In this document: positions 3,069 through 29,381 of the stretch, piece by piece
Layout of the letters: each line of letters opens with the position of its first letter
How positions within the stretch are numbered: position 1 is the stretch's first letter
NCBI GenBank assembly: GCA_017609225.1
Contig: JAFCEK010000002.1
Span: 1-33,098 of the forward strand
DNA length: 33,098 nucleotides
Source: Candidatus Aenigmatarchaeota archaeon
GTDB lineage: Archaea > Aenigmatarchaeota > Aenigmatarchaeia > QMZP01
Reading direction: 5' to 3'
Made by a program: the position numbers and the translations under genes
Notes under the pieces: generated by a model
Told to the model about the DNA's origin: nothing
Databases searched by the model: none
The model's input: the letters and a program-made list of their open reading frames with translations, nothing else

Positions 3069-3117
3069 TTTCTGCTTTTTTGAAGCATTGAAAATTTATA
3101 ATTCAGAACATGCAAAG

Positions 3118-3131
3118 AAAAGTATTTAAAT
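3118..3131 (+). promoter_or_regulatory. BRE/TATA-like promoter for the surface glycoprotein gene (probably leaderless)
   Basis: GAAAAGTATTTAAA lies about 25 bp upstream of the ATG at 3152. Confidence 0.45.
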
Positions 3132-3151
3132 TAAAAATACAAGATGATTTT

Positions 3152-6100
3152 ATGTTTGGAAGGGGGCTTTCCGGATTTGCTGGATTTGGGTTTGTATCCA
3201 TATCTTTCATGCTGATTCTGTTTCTCTGTTTTTTAGCATTTCCTGTTTTCAGCGCTTACAGTGCATATGGAAATTTCAGTGTCCAGAATGAAACCGTGTA
3301 TGTGAACTGGTCAAGCGGCTTTGTGAATGTAACATCTTATACAGATTACATTAACATAAGTATAATAAATACATCAACAGGAGTTTTTTCACTCTATTAT
3401 CAGAATGACAGCAGTCTTTACTGGAATGGTTCATATTCGAATCTGACGGAAACAACATATTCATACTGTTTTTCTGCTGTTGGTTTTCCTGGCATGAAGT
3501 TTATTGTGCAAAACGGCTCTATGGCATACAGCAATGTTAACTTTAATGTAAGCAATGGAACAAGCACCAACTTCACAATAACAGCACATATGCTGTGCCC
3601 CCCCGGAAGGTATTCAGGGAATGTCACATTGAACAACACAAATCATACATATGCAAATGATTCTGTGAACATCATGGTTACATTTGATATACCAATAAGC
3701 AGGCATAATGTTCTGAACGAAACAACATATACAGGATGGCTGAAAGGCAAAATTCCATTATACAATGAAACCGGGACGAATGAAACATACCACAAATATT
3801 ACATGAATACAAGCGAGCTGGAGAATGTGTCAGGCTTCACTGCAACAATGACAGGGTATACAGATGACCTGGATTTGTTTTTATTTGATGAGAACGGCGT
3901 ACTTATAAACCAGAGCATAAACAAAAGCTCTCTGAATGAGGAAATATCTTTTGCAAGGTTCCCTTCCCCAAATTCCGGTGTTATGTGGGAGTTCAGGGTT
4001 TATGGTAATGTCACATCTTCTGCGCTTCAAAACTATAATATATCCTTATATTTCACCACGCTTGATGCCCTGAACAGCTCCAATGAAAGCCAGAGAATCA
4101 ATTCACTGAATTTTGGAGCATTAATTTCAAATCAGAGCAATTCAAGTGAAGTGTTCAGGCTTGCGAACATGGATGACCAGAACCTGACAAACGTGAATGA
4201 AACAAAGGAGCTTTATCATATAAAAATCTGGAACAATGGCTCAACCGGATACAATGAAACGAGAAACTTTACTGATTTCCTTGTTGTGAATTTCACTGAA
4301 AGAATTGAGGTCAGCATAGAATGGGGTCCTGAATCAGGAAAAAACATAACCGACTGGGACCTTTATCTCTATGACAACTCAGGCAATCTTATAAACAGCT
4401 CAACATCAAAGTACATAAATGCAAACATCACAAACGGGACAAGAACAGAATATATAACATACAGCGGTCCGTTTAACTCAAGCAATGATGGCTTCTGGAA
4501 GATATATGTTGTAAATATGACATCTGCAACAGGTGCTGGCCATAGTTTATACAAGGTGAGGGCAAAGATGTGGCTTAATGCATCTGCATGGATAAACACA
4601 AACTTTACTGCAAACACATCGTTTGCCGGGAATGCCACAGGAGGGAATTCAAGCTATGATGTGAATGTAACAATAACAGTGCCTTCAAGAAATATTATAA
4701 ACGGCAGCTACAGGGGGTTCCTTATATACAGCAATGGAAGCGGATGGAAATTTATGCTGCCTCTTAAATTTGATGTTTATGCAGGCATGCTTATAATGAA
4801 CAATTCTATTAGCAATGCGACATATGCTTTCAGGGACAACATAGGATTCAACAAAACCATAAACATAAGCATACCTTATGAAAATATCGGCGGCCTGACT
4901 ATATATTATAATGAATCCAGTTCATATTCTCTTGTGAACACTAACAATGCATCTGCATACATAAATTTTAGCGTGGAGCTGCCTGGAGGAAGCGACAGGG
5001 CTATAAACCCGGGAGAAAACAGCACAATAAACATAACAATCTATCTTGATGTAGATAAAACAGGGAACCAGGAAGGGGTATATACAGGGAATATAACCTT
5101 TTTCACAAACACAACAAATGAAACGAAAAGCTCTTATCCTTACAGTGTATTTACGCAAACAATAACCCTGAACCTTTCACGCTATCTTGATGTTTCACTG
5201 GACAGCATAACACCAACCAACATAAACGGAACAGCGCAGCCTGTTACATTTACATTATCCGTAAGGCTTGCAAACGGCACAGTGATATCAAAGAATAATA
5301 TAATGAACTATCAGAACTTCACATCTGTTTCTGTAAGGGAAACGAATGTTTCATCATATACCCAGTCATTCAGCTCTATAGAATCTGCTGTTGGCTCTTC
5401 TGCATGCGGCGTAAGCACATGCAGCATAAATGCAACATCATACTCGGGCCTTAAGGGGGGAAATTTCAATGTAACTGTTTCTGTGAGCTGGAACACATCC
5501 ATGTACAGCGATGGGTATGGTGCACAGGAGCTTACAGGCAGGGTAACAAACGGCAGCCTTTATGTCCAGGAGCTTGGCTTGTATATAATAGCACTGAACA
5601 GCACAAGCATTGGTGTAATAAACGAGGGAAGCTACAAGTACTTTTATGTTGGTTTGATAAATTATGGGAACAGGTCGGCTGCCATAACAGCAGACCAGAT
5701 ATCATTCAACAAGGGCAGCTGCCAGGTAACGCTTGCCACATCCAGCAGCTACAGCAACTGCTCTGTTTCTGCTTTTAACACATCAACATACAATTATACT
5801 TTGGCTGGTCTTGCTACACAGCAATGTTATTTTTACTGGAGGATTACAGGGAATTCTGTAAGCTCTGATTCCTCGTGTTCAGATGCCAGCATACAGGTTA
5901 ACACAGACAATGTATACAACAGCATGACAGGGATATCTCTTACTGTAAATAATACAGGAACAGGCTCATCCTCCAGCAGTTCAAATCCTTCGGAAACTGT
6001 CAACAGGTCACTGTCAATACTTGCATATCCTTCGCATATTTCAATAAAGCTTAATGAAACAAACACATCAGCAATAACAGTAAGCAATACAGGCAATGTT

Positions 6101-7084
6101 TCCATTACAGCCCAGCTCAGCGTTATATTTACAGAACTGCAGAATGCAAGTGTATACATAACTCCAAGCAACTGCAGCCTGAGTTCAACAGGCACAAGCT
6201 GCATATTTACAGTAAAAATAAATGTTTCAAACACAACCCTGCTGGGCAACTACAGCGGGATTTTCAAGGCTGTTTCCACTACACACTCAAGTGTATACAG
6301 TACAAAGGATTTTGTGCTTTCTGTTCTTCCAACACCTGAAAGAGAAGAGGAGATAAATTATTCATATACCGAATACTTTAATGACTTTCTGAATCTGAGT
6401 TCGGTGTTTGAAGGGATAAAAGCATCCGGCCTTGTTTCTGAAGATAATATAAGCAAGGTTGAACTGCTTCTGAACCAGACAAACGAAACAATAAACCAGA
6501 TGAAAGCATATATATCAGCAGGTGACTTTGTATCAGCTGAGGGGTTGCTGGAAGACCTTAAACTAAAACTTGACAGGATAAGAACAGAAATCCTGCTTCT
6601 TTCAGAGGAGGAACAGGTAAAGATGGAGGCAGCTGCAAGCGGAATCTGGATATGGGTTGTGATAGTTATTGTGATTATAGGTGCAGCTGGTCTGTTAATT
6701 TATATGTTTCTGCCTCCTGAAGGCTACAAGCATGGGCGTGGGTTTATTCCAAAAAAAGAGCGCGACATGCGAAGCAGGATAAAGGAACTGCTGAAAAAAT
6801 TCATATCAAAATTCAGGGGGAGTGGGGAAGGCATAAAATCCGTTAGAAAGGCCTTTAAGAGAAAATCCGGTTATAAATTCAAACCGCACAGATACTCCAA
6901 TGGATATGAAAGGGTGGGCGGCTACAAATATTCATATGGATCTGCGATTAACAATATCAGAATGCCTGAACTTCCAAGGATGAGGTCAGGATTTCTTAAA
7001 AAACTGGGTTCAATAAGGAAAATAGCAAGAAGGAGGCAAAGGGAGCAGAGATTTATTTATGAGTTTGTGCCTGTTTCCCAGTAA
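3152..7084 (+). CDS. Large secreted, C-terminally anchored cell-surface glycoprotein with two PPC-like domains
   Basis: Hydrophobic signal peptide, very dense N-x-S/T sequons, two DLxLYDxxG-type motifs (DDLDLFLFDENG, DWDLYLYDNSG), Ig-like strands, Ser-rich linker, coiled coil, TM helix at ~6644-6712 and a basic tail. The start was moved from 3110 to 3152 on TATA spacing. Confidence 0.8.
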   Translation: MFGRGLSGFAGFGFVSISFMLILFLCFLAFPVFSAYSAYGNFSVQNETVYVNWSSGFVNVTSYTDYINISIINTSTGVFSLYYQNDSSLYWNGSYSNLTETTYSYCFSAVGFPGMKFIVQNGSMAYSNVNFNVSNGTSTNFTITAHMLCPPGRYSGNVTLNNTNHTYANDSVNIMVTFDIPISRHNVLNETTYTGWLKGKIPLYNETGTNETYHKYYMNTSELENVSGFTATMTGYTDDLDLFLFDENGVLINQSINKSSLNEEISFARFPSPNSGVMWEFRVYGNVTSSALQNYNISLYFTTLDALNSSNESQRINSLNFGALISNQSNSSEVFRLANMDDQNLTNVNETKELYHIKIWNNGSTGYNETRNFTDFLVVNFTERIEVSIEWGPESGKNITDWDLYLYDNSGNLINSSTSKYINANITNGTRTEYITYSGPFNSSNDGFWKIYVVNMTSATGAGHSLYKVRAKMWLNASAWINTNFTANTSFAGNATGGNSSYDVNVTITVPSRNIINGSYRGFLIYSNGSGWKFMLPLKFDVYAGMLIMNNSISNATYAFRDNIGFNKTINISIPYENIGGLTIYYNESSSYSLVNTNNASAYINFSVELPGGSDRAINPGENSTINITIYLDVDKTGNQEGVYTGNITFFTNTTNETKSSYPYSVFTQTITLNLSRYLDVSLDSITPTNINGTAQPVTFTLSVRLANGTVISKNNIMNYQNFTSVSVRETNVSSYTQSFSSIESAVGSSACGVSTCSINATSYSGLKGGNFNVTVSVSWNTSMYSDGYGAQELTGRVTNGSLYVQELGLYIIALNSTSIGVINEGSYKYFYVGLINYGNRSAAITADQISFNKGSCQVTLATSSSYSNCSVSAFNTSTYNYTLAGLATQQCYFYWRITGNSVSSDSSCSDASIQVNTDNVYNSMTGISLTVNNTGTGSSSSSSNPSETVNRSLSILAYPSHISIKLNETNTSAITVSNTGNVSITAQLSVIFTELQNASVYITPSNCSLSSTGTSCIFTVKINVSNTTLLGNYSGIFKAVSTTHSSVYSTKDFVLSVLPTPEREEEINYSYTEYFNDFLNLSSVFEGIKASGLVSEDNISKVELLLNQTNETINQMKAYISAGDFVSAEGLLEDLKLKLDRIRTEILLLSEEEQVKMEAAASGIWIWVVIVIVIIGAAGLLIYMFLPPEGYKHGRGFIPKKERDMRSRIKELLKKFISKFRGSGEGIKSVRKAFKRKSGYKFKPHRYSNGYERVGGYKYSYGSAINNIRMPELPRMRSGFLKKLGSIRKIARRRQREQRFIYEFVPVSQ

Positions 7085-23970: not shown

Positions 23971-26082
23971 ATGAAGAGGGGGCAGGCTGAATTAATCATC
24001 ATAATTGGACTGTTTGCGGTTTTGGCTTTGGTTGCCTATTTTACATACCAGAGTGGCATATTTGTTTCTTCAGCTGTTCCTGAAAGCATAAAGGCAGAGC
24101 AGGAGCAGGTAAAGAATTCTGTGCTGAATCTGGCAAGGACTGGTGCATCCAGGGTTATAGAAATTACAGAGGCACATGGCGGATATCTGAATTTGTCTTT
24201 GCTTGCCGGTGATTATGATTTTGAGCCCGGCTTTGATTATACTGTTTTTATGCAAACCAAGGTGCCTTACTGGCAGAAATGCCAGAATGACATAAGCCCC
24301 ACAAAAGCACTGGCCAAAAGAAATATTGAATCCGGACTGGAATTTTACCTGAAAAAAAATCTTAATGATACCCTGGCTGTCTATGGGGAAAACATTACAT
24401 ATGATCTGGAAAATCTGGATGTAAAGGCAACAATTCTGAATGACAAGATAGATTTTGAAGTTGACCTTCCAACCACAGTACAGGACTATGAAATAGAACA
24501 GCCGTATGCATTTTCAATACCTTCAAAGTTTGGTGATATATTTGACTTTGCAAAGGACTTTGCATCTGCATCAGCATCAAAAAGGTTTTTGGAATCCTTT
24601 ACCATAAATACCATTTATTCTTCAAACACGCTGAAAACTTCAGGTGTGCTGACAGAATGTGGTGATTCAATCTATCTCTCAACAGATGACATAAAGAACG
24701 GGCTTTATGGTGCAATAGAATACACGCTTGCCAATATATTATGGTGGCAGGAAATGCCTGCTGCTGGTTCAGGCTTCAAGGTTTATGCAATAGAAGATTT
24801 AAACGGAAAGAAATATCCGCATCTCAGCCCAATAAGATTCTATCTTCCTGACGGATTTAAGCCCAGTGCATCAGCTCCTGTAATCGTTACCAATAATGAA
24901 TACATTATAGATTATCTTATATTTGTTTTGCCTGCATGCATCAAGGCATACAACCTGAAATACACTGTTTCATATCCTGTTATCATAAGAATAAACGACC
25001 AGCTCACAGGCCATGGATTTAATTTTGCATCGCTTGTTTTTGTGGATAACATGACAAAGGGAGAATGCACTGCTGCAGGTATTGTTCCTGGTCCTTCCGC
25101 ATGTGAAAACCTTGCCTGCTCTGCAAATATAGCTGTTGTTGATGGAAACAACAACGCACTTGAAAATGTTTCTGTATTTTTTGGTGGTTGTCTTATAGGA
25201 AAAACAGGAGATAATGGGGTTGTTGAAGGCAGCATAGCCTGCGGCGAACAGATATTCATGATGCAGAAACCCGGTTATGAGCTTTATATGCAAACCCTTT
25301 CATCTTCATCTGTAAATGGCACATACAAGCTGCACAAAATTCCTGAGCTGACAATAAAGTTTGCAGATGTTTTAATAACTGAAAATTCCAGTACATTTTC
25401 TTTGCCGGATGGAAATATAACAAATATTAACTACAGAAAATGCACTGTAAATACCGCGACAGAAACTGTTTTCACAAACCTTTCTTCAACAGAAAACCCA
25501 GGCAGGCATTATATGTTAACAAATATAAATTCATCCAGCGTGCCGGAAGGCTGCTCAAATAATCCTGCCTGCGAGAGCTGTTATGCAGACCCTGCAAACA
25601 ATAATGATGACTGTATTGCATGCTCCCGGCTTTGCACCGCAAACATCACTGACTCTGTAACAGTTGATTACATAACAGCTGGTAATTATGATATAGAATG
25701 CGAGATATGGGATACTGAAAACTACATAGTAAAAGGCGGTTTCAAATCAAATTACAACCTGCCTGAACAGGACAGTAATCTGTATTTTTATATACCGCGC
25801 GGCATTGATGATGCATCTGCTGCAGAATCAGAAAAAATTGAAATAACGGAAAGACTCAGGAACTGGTGCAGCATGGAGCCTGTGTCAGTAGCCGAGCAGA
25901 AAAACACAATAGGCATTACAGGGGTTTGCGGCTGCCATGAATTAAGAGGTCTTATAGATAAGGAGTTTCTTTCCTGCATGGGCAGTATGAATGATCTTTT
26001 TGACAGTAACTGGAACTGCAACAGGGACAATGTTTTAAGCGAGATATATTCAAGATGTGGTTACAGGGTGTTGGGATGTTAG
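23971..26082 (+). CDS. Class III (type IV pilin-like) signal-peptide surface protein, Cys-rich
   Basis: MKRG|QAELIIIIGLFAVLAL prepilin-type N-terminus at ATG 23971, a carboxypeptidase-regulatory/PEGA-like segment (IAVVDGNNNALENVSV...GKTGDNG) and many Cys residues. A TATA-like ATTTAATAA lies about 25 bp upstream. Confidence 0.8.
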   Translation: MKRGQAELIIIIGLFAVLALVAYFTYQSGIFVSSAVPESIKAEQEQVKNSVLNLARTGASRVIEITEAHGGYLNLSLLAGDYDFEPGFDYTVFMQTKVPYWQKCQNDISPTKALAKRNIESGLEFYLKKNLNDTLAVYGENITYDLENLDVKATILNDKIDFEVDLPTTVQDYEIEQPYAFSIPSKFGDIFDFAKDFASASASKRFLESFTINTIYSSNTLKTSGVLTECGDSIYLSTDDIKNGLYGAIEYTLANILWWQEMPAAGSGFKVYAIEDLNGKKYPHLSPIRFYLPDGFKPSASAPVIVTNNEYIIDYLIFVLPACIKAYNLKYTVSYPVIIRINDQLTGHGFNFASLVFVDNMTKGECTAAGIVPGPSACENLACSANIAVVDGNNNALENVSVFFGGCLIGKTGDNGVVEGSIACGEQIFMMQKPGYELYMQTLSSSSVNGTYKLHKIPELTIKFADVLITENSSTFSLPDGNITNINYRKCTVNTATETVFTNLSSTENPGRHYMLTNINSSSVPEGCSNNPACESCYADPANNNDDCIACSRLCTANITDSVTVDYITAGNYDIECEIWDTENYIVKGGFKSNYNLPEQDSNLYFYIPRGIDDASAAESEKIEITERLRNWCSMEPVSVAEQKNTIGITGVCGCHELRGLIDKEFLSCMGSMNDLFDSNWNCNRDNVLSEIYSRCGYRVLGC

Positions 26083-29000
26083 ATTACAGGATGTTTAACT
26101 TGGCAGTTGTGTTTTTTGCAGCATATCTGCTGATTTCCTTAACCATGGTGCAGGCCACCAATATTAACATATATGTTGCGGGTATTTCTTTCGGTACCGT
26201 GGAATACAAACCGGAAAAGCTTGTAAAAAGGGAAATAAGGATTGAAAAAACAGATCCTTTCTGGAACAGTGCGAATGTTTTTATGAATATAAGCGTCAGG
26301 GAAGGGGAAATGAAGGCAGCATATATCTACAAATGCAGAGGCCTCCAGCCTCATGAATGTATTAAATCTGGTTTCTATGACAGCTTTATACCTGAAAATG
26401 GTTTATGGTTTGCAAAAAACTATCAATGGTCTGAGCTGGCAGACACATCGGTTCCGCCATCTCCTGAAAATCCACAAAAAGCAAAGATTATAATGCTGAT
26501 TGAACTGGAAACAGAAACAGGCGAAAGATGGGTTGGATTTTTTGACGAAATAAAAAGAACTGATTTCAGTTTTCCTGAGCCATGGCTCTTCAATTATTCA
26601 CTGAATGAAGCAGAGCTTCATGTAAATATGGATTATGCAACCCAGATAGAATCGTTTGTTCAGGGGAAAGAAATGATTCCCTTTAACCCGGAATGGACTG
26701 AAAAGATTGTTTTTTCTGGCACAGAAAAAGCGTATGAGTTCCAGGCTGAAAGCCCTCCAGGATTTCAGGCAGATGATGTATATAACCACAGTACAAACAC
26801 AATAACAAATATAAGCAAAGAGTATTCTTTTGCCCTGCCTTATACTGATGGTATTGTTTATAATCCTATTGTTTTAAACCTGAATCCGTCTTTCACATGC
26901 GGTAACGGCCAGTGCGAAACAGAGCTCGGGGAAAGTTCAGCAAACTGCTGCTATGACTGTGCATGCACAGCAGGATATTACTGCGATGCCTCAAGTCCAT
27001 GCAAGCGGATTGATGGGATAACGCTTGATTTATATGGAAAGCAAAATACACATATCACCAGTTGCTCTGAATCTCATGTTGTGAATATCACGCTCAGGCT
27101 GAACAATCCGCCTTTTGGCATGCAGTTTATAGGCAAACAATATATACTTGCAGGCCAGACATATACTGCAGCATGCGAAGGCGGACCTTCAGTATATATT
27201 TGCCATATTCCTGTTCCTGCTGATCCCAAGTGCGATGAGGGAACATATAACATTGGCCCAAACTATATTATATTTAACATAACATTTCCTGATGGTCCAA
27301 GAAATCCGATAAAAAAAGATCTTGTTGTGCAGTTTCCAAATATAACAGTTGCCTCATGGGAATGCGGAAACAACATGTGTGAGACAGAGCTTGGGGAAAG
27401 TTCAGCAAACTGCTGCTATGACTGTGCATGCACAGCAGGATATTACTGCGACTGGTACGATGGATCTGGAACATGCAAACCCGAAGTTACAGACTCCAAT
27501 CTTTTGATATCTTTTGTAAACCCAAGGGTGTTTAATTCATCATTACAAGGCCAGGAGCATTTTAATCTGATTGCTCAGATACTGAACAGGCCTGACAGTC
27601 TTGTATCAAATCCTGAAGCTTCATGTGCCATAGACTGCAGGTATAACCTTACCAGCATATGTACTGCTGCATGCAGCATTAGCTGCGCCGAAGAGGCCGG
27701 CGGTCCAAATCCTAATATATACAATTCCTCATGCGAGATAAGCTTTGATATATTAAATTACAACCAGAGCAGAAACTATATTCTGTATCCGGAGATGAAC
27801 TATATCATCAGTTATAAGAACGGCTCTGCAAGCATAACAAAAACACTGACAGGCAGTATTGATACGATCACACTGGGTCCGCATCGCTGCGGGGATGGTG
27901 AATGCACACCTGATGAGAGCATGGAAACATGCTGCTATGACTGTGCATGCACAGCAGGATATTACTGCTATACGGAGAATCCGGGTTATCCTGGTTTATA
28001 TGATGAATGCAGGAACGAATCAGGGATTAGTATGCAAATAACAACCAATTCTCCAACCGTTTTTTCAGATTCCAGTGCAGAGCATACCATAAACATTACA
28101 ATTAATATAAGCAACAAGCCAGGCGGAACTGTTATTGAAGGCAAAATATGCAAACTTGGCGGCCTGGAAAACGGTGTTGCATGTTTCCTGTCATGTTCAG
28201 ATGATGTTTCTTCCAGCCCTGAAAACTATGTAATGAACTGCAATATAACTGTTCCTGCAATAAACTATCTGACCTCTCCCTTTTACAATAACCAGACAAA
28301 AAAACTTGAGTTTTCATCAAACAGCATAAGGATTTCAATAAGGTTTAATGACGGCTCGCGCGGTTATGCTACAAAAGAGCTTAACGGGGAATTTGATGAT
28401 GTTGTGATAACGCCTGAATTTTATTGCGGAAACCATGTATGCGAAGATAGTCTGGAAACTCCTGAAACAGCAAGCAACTGCTGTGTGGATTGTGCCTGCA
28501 AGCAAGACCCCTTGTTCGGTTCAGAGTATTTCTGTCTTATATCATCTGAAAATCCCGGCGGCACCTGCATTCATATGACTGATATAGGGCTTGTTATTGA
28601 TGACCCAGACACTGCAAAATGCACAATAAGCAACATTGGCGATGGGTGCCTGTTTATGCATGCAGTGAATTTCAATGCAGAAATAGTCAATGCCCCACAT
28701 GATGTTCAAATAATAAGCAGTTACTATACATATGATGGCATTGATTACGCATTAACCTGCATGCAGGATTCCATGAACCATACAAATTATTCCTGCTCCT
28801 TTGTGATTCCTCATCCCGAAGGCCCGCAGGAAGGGAGCATGGTGAAAAATGTTGATGTTAATTTTGTTGTAAGATATACAGATGGAAACGAGCTTATAAC
28901 GCAGAACATCTCCGGAAGTTTCAGCCTTTACATAAAAATGGAAAAAACATCTGATGTCAGGACATGCGAAGCCCAGCTAAATGAAATTGAAGAGGATATT

Positions 29001-29381
29001 AAAGAGATAAAAGACCTGAAGGATTTTGTTAAAGGGTTTGTTAATGTGTTTCTGGGCATTGCTTCATTTTTTGCTCCTTTTTGTGCTCTGGAAATAGCCA
29101 CAGGAGGATTGCTGCTGTGGTTTGGTGTGGCTTCATGTGTCTGGGCTGCTGTTGCTAGTTGTATGGCTTCCTGCATTAGTGCAACTATTATACCGCTTAT
29201 TGATGATACCCTGGAAGAAGCAGAAGGTATGAAAGCCAATATAGAATCCAGATGCCAGGCCACAGATCTTGACAGCCTTAACAGCGGTATTATTGGGATG
29301 TTTGATAAAAGCGAAAGGATATCAACACTTGTTTCGGGTGTAACATGTGCTGTCTGCTTTATAGCAGCCATTTTCCTTTAG
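26076..29381 (+). CDS. Large secreted protein with four CGxxxC...E...CCxDCAC repeats and a C-terminal coiled-coil/hydrophobic region
   Basis: Signal peptide; Cys repeats begin at 26898, 27363, 27888 and 28425 and are separated by beta-rich domains; hydrophobic C-terminus. The start overlaps the upstream stop; 26091 is an alternative. Confidence 0.82.
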   Translation: MLDYRMFNLAVVFFAAYLLISLTMVQATNINIYVAGISFGTVEYKPEKLVKREIRIEKTDPFWNSANVFMNISVREGEMKAAYIYKCRGLQPHECIKSGFYDSFIPENGLWFAKNYQWSELADTSVPPSPENPQKAKIIMLIELETETGERWVGFFDEIKRTDFSFPEPWLFNYSLNEAELHVNMDYATQIESFVQGKEMIPFNPEWTEKIVFSGTEKAYEFQAESPPGFQADDVYNHSTNTITNISKEYSFALPYTDGIVYNPIVLNLNPSFTCGNGQCETELGESSANCCYDCACTAGYYCDASSPCKRIDGITLDLYGKQNTHITSCSESHVVNITLRLNNPPFGMQFIGKQYILAGQTYTAACEGGPSVYICHIPVPADPKCDEGTYNIGPNYIIFNITFPDGPRNPIKKDLVVQFPNITVASWECGNNMCETELGESSANCCYDCACTAGYYCDWYDGSGTCKPEVTDSNLLISFVNPRVFNSSLQGQEHFNLIAQILNRPDSLVSNPEASCAIDCRYNLTSICTAACSISCAEEAGGPNPNIYNSSCEISFDILNYNQSRNYILYPEMNYIISYKNGSASITKTLTGSIDTITLGPHRCGDGECTPDESMETCCYDCACTAGYYCYTENPGYPGLYDECRNESGISMQITTNSPTVFSDSSAEHTINITINISNKPGGTVIEGKICKLGGLENGVACFLSCSDDVSSSPENYVMNCNITVPAINYLTSPFYNNQTKKLEFSSNSIRISIRFNDGSRGYATKELNGEFDDVVITPEFYCGNHVCEDSLETPETASNCCVDCACKQDPLFGSEYFCLISSENPGGTCIHMTDIGLVIDDPDTAKCTISNIGDGCLFMHAVNFNAEIVNAPHDVQIISSYYTYDGIDYALTCMQDSMNHTNYSCSFVIPHPEGPQEGSMVKNVDVNFVVRYTDGNELITQNISGSFSLYIKMEKTSDVRTCEAQLNEIEEDIKEIKDLKDFVKGFVNVFLGIASFFAPFCALEIATGGLLLWFGVASCVWAAVASCMASCISATIIPLIDDTLEEAEGMKANIESRCQATDLDSLNSGIIGMFDKSERISTLVSGVTCAVCFIAAIFL
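26919..27968 (+). repeat. Intragenic nucleotide-identical repeats
   Basis: 59 bp are identical at 26928-26986 and 27393-27451. The 39-bp core TGCTGCTATGACTGTGCATGCACAGCAGGATATTACTGC is identical at 26946, 27411 and 27930. Confidence 0.95.

Follow-up and report, generated by a model that had tools for sequence, protein, structure and literature searches.

The window analysed here is the 33,098-nucleotide (nt) stretch at positions 1 to 33,098 of contig JAFCEK010000002.1, from a Candidatus Aenigmatarchaeota archaeon, and the gene under study (26055..29381, plus strand) encodes a predicted cysteine-rich surface protein built from four modules, each a small cysteine knot followed by an immunoglobulin (Ig)-like body. 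Within the knots of modules 1 to 3 (M1 to M3) there are blocks of DNA that are identical even at their synonymous positions. The blocks are very probably the result of recent short-tract copying between the conserved knots of four ancient repeats, and not of domain shuffling. The preliminary description of this DNA had proposed recent gene conversion or cassette-like shuffling of domains through the blocks, diversifying an adhesin. The gene conversion part of that proposal is borne out by codon identity, sharp tract edges, a shared sequence variant and independent tracts at the same knots in other genes; the shuffling part is not, as module order is fixed, the bodies fall into four groups by position and their divergences co-vary between genomes (r 0.60-0.74). 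Neither is the diversifying effect, as the copying makes conserved knots alike. The effect is homogenising, that is, concerted evolution of a sub-domain: because conversion affects the part of the protein that is most conserved and makes its copies alike, no diversification results.

The features of the gene are listed in Table 1. The modules start at amino acids (aa) 282, 437, 612 and 791, which gives a repeat length of approximately 155-180 codons. Each consists of an eight-cysteine knot (CGxGxCE..LGE..NCCYDCxC..GYYC..C) and a body of approximately 120-140 aa.

Table 1. Features of the gene carrying the identical blocks.
26055..29381, plus strand: gene of the four-module cysteine-rich predicted surface protein; open reading frame (ORF) of 1108 aa, database copy of 1101 aa from M8 (26076)
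26157..26879, plus strand: N-terminal beta-rich domain, approximately aa 35-275 (AlphaFold2 (AF2) model; predicted local distance difference test (pLDDT) of 10-residue blocks over aa 31-280 mostly 72-89, lowest 65)
26898..27002, plus strand: knot 1, aa 282-316, eight cysteines, C-x4-C-x10-CC-x2-C-x-C-x5-C-x5-C (sequence)
26928..26986, plus strand: identical block, copy 1, 59 nt, of which the inner 39 nt are common to all three copies (exact match)
27003..27362, plus strand: body 1, Ig-like beta-sandwich (alignment, tree, AF2 model, profile comparison)
27363..27476, plus strand: knot 2, aa 437-474 (sequence)
27393..27451, plus strand: identical block, copy 2, 59 nt (exact match)
27477..27887, plus strand: body 2, Ig-like beta-sandwich (module-2 model, pLDDT 94.6)
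27888..28010, plus strand: knot 3, aa 612-652 (sequence)
27930..27968, plus strand: identical block, copy 3, 39 nt (exact match)
28011..28424, plus strand: body 3, Ig-like beta-sandwich (alignment, tree, AF2 model)
28425..28568, plus strand: knot 4, aa 791-838, unconverted (21 of 39 nt of the block)
28569..28946, plus strand: body 4, Ig-like beta-sandwich (alignment, tree, AF2 model)
28950..29378, plus strand: C-terminal long helices, aa 966-1016, 1024-1068 and 1076-1107 (AF2 secondary structure)

Extent and position of the identical blocks

An exact match search confirmed the 39-nt block (TGCTGC...TACTGC) reported earlier at three sites: it is present at 26946-26984, 27411-27449 and 27930-27968, always on the plus strand. 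As also reported, the identity of copies 1 and 2 extends over 59 nt (26928-26986 and 27393-27451), and the fourth copy (knot from 28425, CC at 28479) has diverged, matching the block at 21 of 39 nt. The blocks form the cores of knots 1-3 and encode the residues GESSAN-CCYDCACTAGYYC-D. Copies 1 and 2 are 91% identical over a wider stretch of 90 nt, in which the 31 nt upstream of the 59-mer are approximately 74% identical and contain several synonymous differences; in copy 3 the identity is confined to exactly 39 nt and divergence is immediate on both sides. The exact tracts thus have sharp edges, beyond which the sequence falls to about 74% identity or becomes unalignable. The direct repeats are spaced by 465 and 519 nt (984 nt from copy 1 to copy 3), all multiples of three, and the copies are read in one frame.

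A search for the block elsewhere in the genome and in metagenomes, as suggested in the preliminary description, found it nowhere outside the gene. With up to three mismatches allowed, there is no fourth copy of the 39-mer in the window (0 of 100 shuffles gave any match), and none beyond these three in the organism's own genome (880 kb, 79 contigs, 78% complete). The exact 39-mer gave 0 matches in metagenome_contigs and 0 in viral_contigs, two collections that possibly lack the records of the source genome or of its very close relatives, and a fully degenerate back-translation of the 13 block residues (CCYDCACTAGYYC) gave 0 matches in metagenome_contigs.

Inside each block lies the perfect 14-nt palindrome CTGTGCATGCACAG (26955-26968, 27420-27433 and 27939-27952), which is confined to these three sites in the genome. 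The palindrome may promote exchange as a site where DNA breaks easily, or it may be a mere by-product of codon choice. The hexamer GCATGC is found 380 times in the genome, against approximately 140 occurrences expected from base composition. The RNA of the 59-mer folds no better than its shuffles (z 0.41), of which 127 of 200 fold at least as well.

Codon identity compared with chance

In order to compare the identity with that expected from shared residues, codon frequencies were taken from 470 long ORFs of the genome, and probabilities were conditioned on identical residues. The probability of identical codons is approximately 10^-4.0 for two 13-codon copies, 10^-7.4 for three such copies and 10^-7.0 for the 19-codon pair. 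Moreover, when the whole gene was redrawn synonymously 1000 times, no redraw gave a 59-nt repeat, the longest being 51 nt. These probabilities and reshuffles support the earlier statement that the identity of third positions goes beyond what selection on the protein would preserve. Some of the codons involved are biased in this genome (TGC 0.71, GCA 0.54, ACA 0.63), and the minority codons TGT, GAC and TAC are also identical across all copies of the block.

The comparison of synonymous divergence in blocks and flanks, which had likewise been suggested, points the same way. At identical residues the knots use the same codon in 23 of 27 cases (M1/M2), 15 of 19 (M1/M3) and 14 of 18 (M2/M3). The corresponding values for the bodies are 10 of 20, 17 of 34 and 15 of 31, which is the chance level. 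When different genes are compared, the frequency with which identical knot residues have the same codon is only 0.52, and therefore there is no conserved constraint on the DNA sequence of the knots as such.

Age and order of the modules

All four modules can be aligned with each other. Profile-profile comparison of the bodies alone gave a probability of 95-99% for five of the six pairs and 55% for M2/M4, although the bodies share only 17-27% of their residues and their synonymous sites are saturated. The intervening domains, which had been described as showing little evident similarity, are therefore divergent but not unrelated.

A search of 5.8 billion proteins yielded 34 homologues, the nearest one apart from the protein itself being 43% identical. 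The protein can be aligned with its orthologues over its entire length, the motif CCYDC is near-invariant, and the four knots were found at the same positions in all 21 near-full-length homologues (1071-1263 aa). Genomes with a match amount to 52 of 91 in the organism's order and 44 of 46 in its own family. Thirty loci were fetched, which gave 28 genes; the other two loci had no ORF carrying at least two knots. Four recognisable knots are present in 22 of the 28 genes, with positions unchanged in all 22. In a FastTree phylogeny of the 88 bodies of these genes, a coarse test on 133 columns, the bodies of M1, M2, M3 and M4 each lie on one side of a branch (support 84, 99, 75 and 98), and the divergences of the four bodies co-vary between genomes with r 0.60-0.74. 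Nothing among the 22 four-knot genes points to modules having been reordered, lost, gained or swapped. Because the bodies cluster by position in these 22 orthologues, we consider the number and order of the modules to be ancient and fixed. An invariant module order together with the absence of the block elsewhere had been named in advance as grounds for rejection; the order is invariant in the 21 homologues and the 22 genes, the block was found nowhere else in the genome and the collections scanned, and on these grounds the shuffling part is refuted.

Several observations on the wider family can be added. Distant homologues (1085-1710 aa) with zero to three recognisable knots are frequent in the protein search. 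The source genome itself encodes a paralogue (G000:C32:17005-21426) of 1473 aa, which differs in its C-terminal region and has only three recognisable knots (aa 298, 603 and 767). These have not been converted with those of the gene studied here, matching the block at no more than 30 of 39 nt. The gene occurs as a tandem pair on one contig in several genera (G026:C11, G033:C2, G032:C95, G034:C12 and G025:C9). A single in-frame stop is present in three orthologues (G060:C11, TGA; G038:C67, TAA; G022:C8, TAA), which could be pseudogenes, sequencing errors or split genes.

Recurrence of the tracts in orthologous genes

Exact intragenic repeats of at least 17 nt were found in 7 of the 28 genes, and repeats of at least 26 nt in five, four of them besides the gene in the window (Table 2). 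In these five genes the repeats lie at the knots, are in frame and are centred on CCYDC; the sequence of the repeat and its ends differ from gene to gene. For L006, 18 of 1000 reshuffles gave a repeat as long as its 21 nt; the remaining 22 genes were unremarkable.

Table 2. Intragenic repeats of at least 26 nt and the number of synonymous reshuffles that reached their length.
Gene in the window (L004): longest repeat 59 nt, also 39 and 39 nt; M1/M2, with M3; 0 of 1000
L005: 56 nt; M1/M2 knots; 0 of 1000
L010: 37 nt; M2/M3 knots; 1 of 1000
L031: 35 nt; M1/M2 knots; 0 of 1000
L017: 26 nt; M2/M3 knots; 2 of 1000

The nearest nucleotide neighbour was then determined for 85 knots, three knots with an atypical motif having been dropped. 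It is the knot of the same module in another gene in 55 of 85 cases, a knot of the same gene in 11 and another knot in 19. The 11 knots with a neighbour in their own gene are M1-M3 of the gene in the window, M1/M2 of L005, M2/M3 of L010, M1/M2 of L031, M4 of L012 and M4 of L025. The knots M1-M3 in the window are thus mutual nearest neighbours, as are the paired knots of L005, L010 and L031, while the bodies attached to them group by position.

Additionally, the three knots share the residues CACTAGYYC, a variant that was found only there among the 85 knots and the 34 homologues. Since it was seen in no other homologue or knot, we regard it as a variant that originated in a single knot of this lineage and is now present in three.

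Proposed origin of the blocks and alternative explanations

According to the explanation that we favour, the four knot and Ig-like modules would have arisen by ancient tandem duplication, after which the bodies diverged. Purifying selection would keep the knots alike, so that they alone remain similar enough in their DNA for pairing or template switching to start, and a core exchanged between knots would be tolerated as functionally interchangeable. The copying would be non-reciprocal and of short tract, either gene conversion by homologous recombination or template switching during replication. The genome does encode a protein of the Rad51/RadA family (E 2e-94). At least two events would be needed, one between M1 and M2 over at least 59 nt and another that brought M3 to the same 39 nt, and they would have spread the lineage-specific CACTAGYYC to the three knots. 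The longer identity left by a conversion should ease further exchange, and the same process would have acted independently in other members of the family.

It is important to mention the points that weigh against this explanation. Clear tracts were found in only 5 of the 28 genes; in the 16 other four-knot genes the sharing of knot codons shows a small excess (529 of 824, against 466 expected), which could reflect decayed older tracts or a local codon preference. The alignment window of the knots was chosen by hand around the motif, and two of the four groups of bodies in the 133-column tree have support below 95. The nearest homologue, at 43% identity, is too distant to show the timing or the donor of the copying, and no polymorphism is documented. 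Finally, the identity is that of the assembled contigs of a metagenome-assembled genome.

The last point bears on the possibility that the identity is an artefact of assembly or polishing, by which differing knots were made identical or a chimaeric contig was joined at the repeats. The source is indeed a metagenome-assembled genome of 79 contigs. Such an artefact is nevertheless highly improbable, given that the repeats of 39-59 nt are below the usual read length and that assemblers join sequences at repeats but do not rewrite them. Each block also lies in frame in the expected knot, between unique flanks, in a protein collinear with its orthologues end to end; the shared residues form a coherent lineage-specific variant; and comparable tracts of other sequence are present in four other genomes, including some with a different style of contig naming (records named NODE_... 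and k141_... carry tracts, as an overlapping set rather than as independent cases). It is very unlikely, too, that the blocks are joints of a cassette-type system in which modules are added, dropped, reordered or swapped to diversify an adhesin. As the direct repeats are in frame, at distances of 465, 519 and 984 nt, exchange between them would delete or duplicate whole modules without a shift of frame, and the nearest orthologue of the bodies in the window varies by module (L017, L006, L019 and L005), by small margins. However, the four knots hold fixed positions in the 21 near-full-length homologues and the 22 four-knot genes, and the bodies, with their co-varying divergences (r 0.60-0.74), are grouped strictly by position. 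Moreover, the genome, at 78% completeness, contains neither a further copy of the block nor a silent donor, the paralogue on C32 matching at 30 of 39 nt at most, no recombinase, integrase or reverse transcriptase was recognised among the 24 ORFs of at least 150 aa scanned in the 33-kb window, and the converted segment is the conserved and not the variable part of the protein.

Two further explanations do without copying. Selection on the nucleotide sequence itself, for instance on a binding palindrome or an RNA structure kept in three places, could be invoked because the perfect palindrome CTGTGCATGCACAG is restricted to these three sites of the genome. This is scarcely credible, as orthologues encode the same residues with other codons (0.52 codon identity), the tracts of other lineages have different sequences without the palindrome, the 59-mer folds like its shuffles (z 0.41), and the palindrome is a consequence of the codon choice for D-C-A-C-T. 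Chance under strong codon bias, in turn, could draw on residues that are highly conserved (CCYDC being near-invariant) and on biased codons for Cys, Ala and Thr, but its likelihood is practically nil in view of the probabilities of 10^-7.4 and 10^-7.0, of 0 in 1000 reshuffles and of the minority codons TGT, GAC and TAC being the same in all copies.

A different role for the same tracts can also be imagined, in which the homogenised knots are maintained, and not merely tolerated, as in-frame recombination joints for RadA-dependent unequal or allelic exchange of Ig-like modules, through which a host-contact protein in an episymbiotic archaeon would come to vary in its length or in its binding surface. 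We consider this unlikely, although the nearest orthologue is not the same for each body. It would imply, just as doubtfully, that the four-module form is only the majority consensus reported by assemblies, rare variants being invisible in contigs. If true, such joints would mean that this variation exists at the population level.

Comparison with known systems

In microbial surface proteins, gene conversion is well known to bring about the concerted evolution of intragenic repeats. The gene in the window resembles such cases in its sharp-edged identical tracts within diverged in-frame repeats of a predicted surface protein, and in that the repeats concerned are more alike within a genome than across genomes. 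Unlike in concerted evolution in general, only the core of the cysteine knot, approximately 13-19 codons, is homogenised, and unlike in recent tandem arrays the repeats are ancient, approximately 155-180 codons long, and in their bulk position-orthologous across an archaeal family. The case shows concerted evolution restricted to a sub-domain, in which a core of 13-19 codons recombines and the rest of the repeat has diverged beyond recognition at the DNA level. It adds one more example, from an uncharacterised family, to a process that was already known, and does not overturn existing knowledge; what it does indicate is that identical blocks within a repeat protein need not mark mobile cassettes.

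In the Neisseria pilE/pilS and Borrelia vlsE systems, silent donor cassettes supply variable segments and diversify the expressed gene. Short-tract gene conversion in a surface protein gene is common to those systems and the one proposed here. The present gene differs in that no donor was found outside the gene, the segment copied is a conserved one and the outcome is homogenising. A limited literature search found no description of such conversion in DPANN archaea, and no paper on this protein family.

For archaea, homologous recombination by marker exchange is reported in Sulfolobus acidocaldarius (PMC3367456) and gene conversion in Haloferax volcanii (PMC11276520). The likeness lies in archaeal recombination or conversion as such, a RadA-type gene being present here. 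The reported work is experimental and concerns exchange between DNA molecules or chromosome copies, whereas the copying proposed here would have occurred within one gene of an uncultured lineage.

The architecture of the protein, with a small cysteine knot and an Ig-like sandwich repeated along an ectodomain with a putative membrane anchor, recalls the PSI and IPT domains of the plexin and Met ectodomains. When the full-length model was submitted to Foldseek, the ectodomains of plexin A4 and A1 ranked first (E 2.4e-13 to 1.3e-11), with a template modelling (TM) score of only about 0.09, and other strings of Ig domains followed close behind. Likewise, Met and plexin IPT domains were among the tied VIA matches of the module, at Z 7.0-7.3, where values below 8 are the tool's stated background, and none of the module's matches covers its residues 1-42, which form the knot, to any appreciable extent. 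No match to PSI (PF01437) or TIG/IPT (PF01833) was obtained for the whole protein at E<=0.01 or for any of the 88 modules at E<=1, and the cysteine spacing of PSI differs from that of the knots described here. The likeness to plexin and Met is a resemblance in architecture, not membership.

Domain structure of the protein

The protein, predicted to be secreted and held in the membrane, contains 60 cysteines and 20 N-x-S/T sequons and has no Pfam (E<=0.01) or NCBIfam match. Its full-length AF2 model has a pLDDT of 73 and a predicted TM score of 0.38. The layout comprises an N-terminal signal or transmembrane helix (aa 11-28), the beta-rich domain, the four modules and three C-terminal helices, the first of which is charged and coiled-coil-like and the later ones hydrophobic and rich in cysteine; they may serve as a stalk and a membrane anchor.

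A model of module 2 built on the alignment of 88 modules (pLDDT 94.6) shows the small knot packed onto a beta-sandwich. With this module, Foldseek and VIA returned generic Ig-like sandwiches only (best E 9e-4; Z 7.8 or lower); EFF-1 appeared as a fold match with a probability of 0.18-0.23 and was disregarded. Among sequence profiles of the PDB, the module matches only the Ig-like domains of T4 Hoc (E 1.8e-4), and the whole protein matches none. Pfam gave only single, chance-level matches over the 88 modules, and no usable match to the protein was found in the ESM Atlas. The protein belongs to an uncharacterised family of predicted surface proteins, probably of Aenigmatarchaeota.

Upstream partner gene and genomic context

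Directly upstream of the gene lies a second gene in the same orientation, and the start of the former overlaps or abuts the stop of the latter at 26080-26082.

23971..26082, plus strand: upstream partner gene, 703 aa from ATG (ORF opening at TTG 23896), adjoining the start of the four-module gene

The partner protein begins with MKRGQAELIIIIG, behind which lies a hydrophobic helix. Its N-terminus and those of 11 orthologues conform to M[KR][KR][AG]Q[AV]E[FL] with a hydrophobic stretch behind it, which may resemble an archaeal class III (pilin-type) signal. The protein has no Pfam or NCBIfam match, and its look-alikes in the ESM Atlas belong to unnamed clusters from Aenigmatarchaeota, Nanobdellota and Woesearchaeota. 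A homologue of the partner was found in 37 of 42 fetched loci, which come from two overlapping sources, so that the counts are not independent. In 35 of the 37 it is directly upstream and co-oriented; of the other two, one is separated from the four-module gene by approximately 3.4 kb and one is preceded by a C-terminal fragment of a protein related to the four-module one. Among the five loci without the partner, four have a tandem paralogue of the four-module gene upstream and the fifth is a short contig. The region 23971-29381 is thus a conserved two-gene operon without family assignment.

The signal peptide, the 20 sequons, the 60 cysteines, the Ig-like modules and the putative anchor together suggest a role of the operon pair at the cell surface or in host contact, as far as can be judged from the sequences. 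With its protein bearing a pilin-like signal and its putatively anchored knot and Ig-like protein, the operon is a reasonable candidate for a cell-envelope or host-contact function in DPANN archaea.

The window also encodes the archaeal ribosomal proteins P0, P1, L1 and L11, alaS, secDF and HMG-CoA synthase. Ribosomal P1 (29433-29900), L1 (30773-31636) and L11 (32256-32879), all on the minus strand, carry long extensions rich in Lys, Glu, Pro and Ala: N-terminal ones of approximately 55 aa in P1 and 85 aa in L1, and a C-terminal one of approximately 70 aa in L11. The families of CT-rich direct repeats in the window are due to these extensions. Finally, an ORF at 3110-7084 on the plus strand encodes 1324 aa with an N-terminal hydrophobic segment, many N-x-S/T sequons and no Pfam or NCBIfam match, and its product is probably a further surface glycoprotein.

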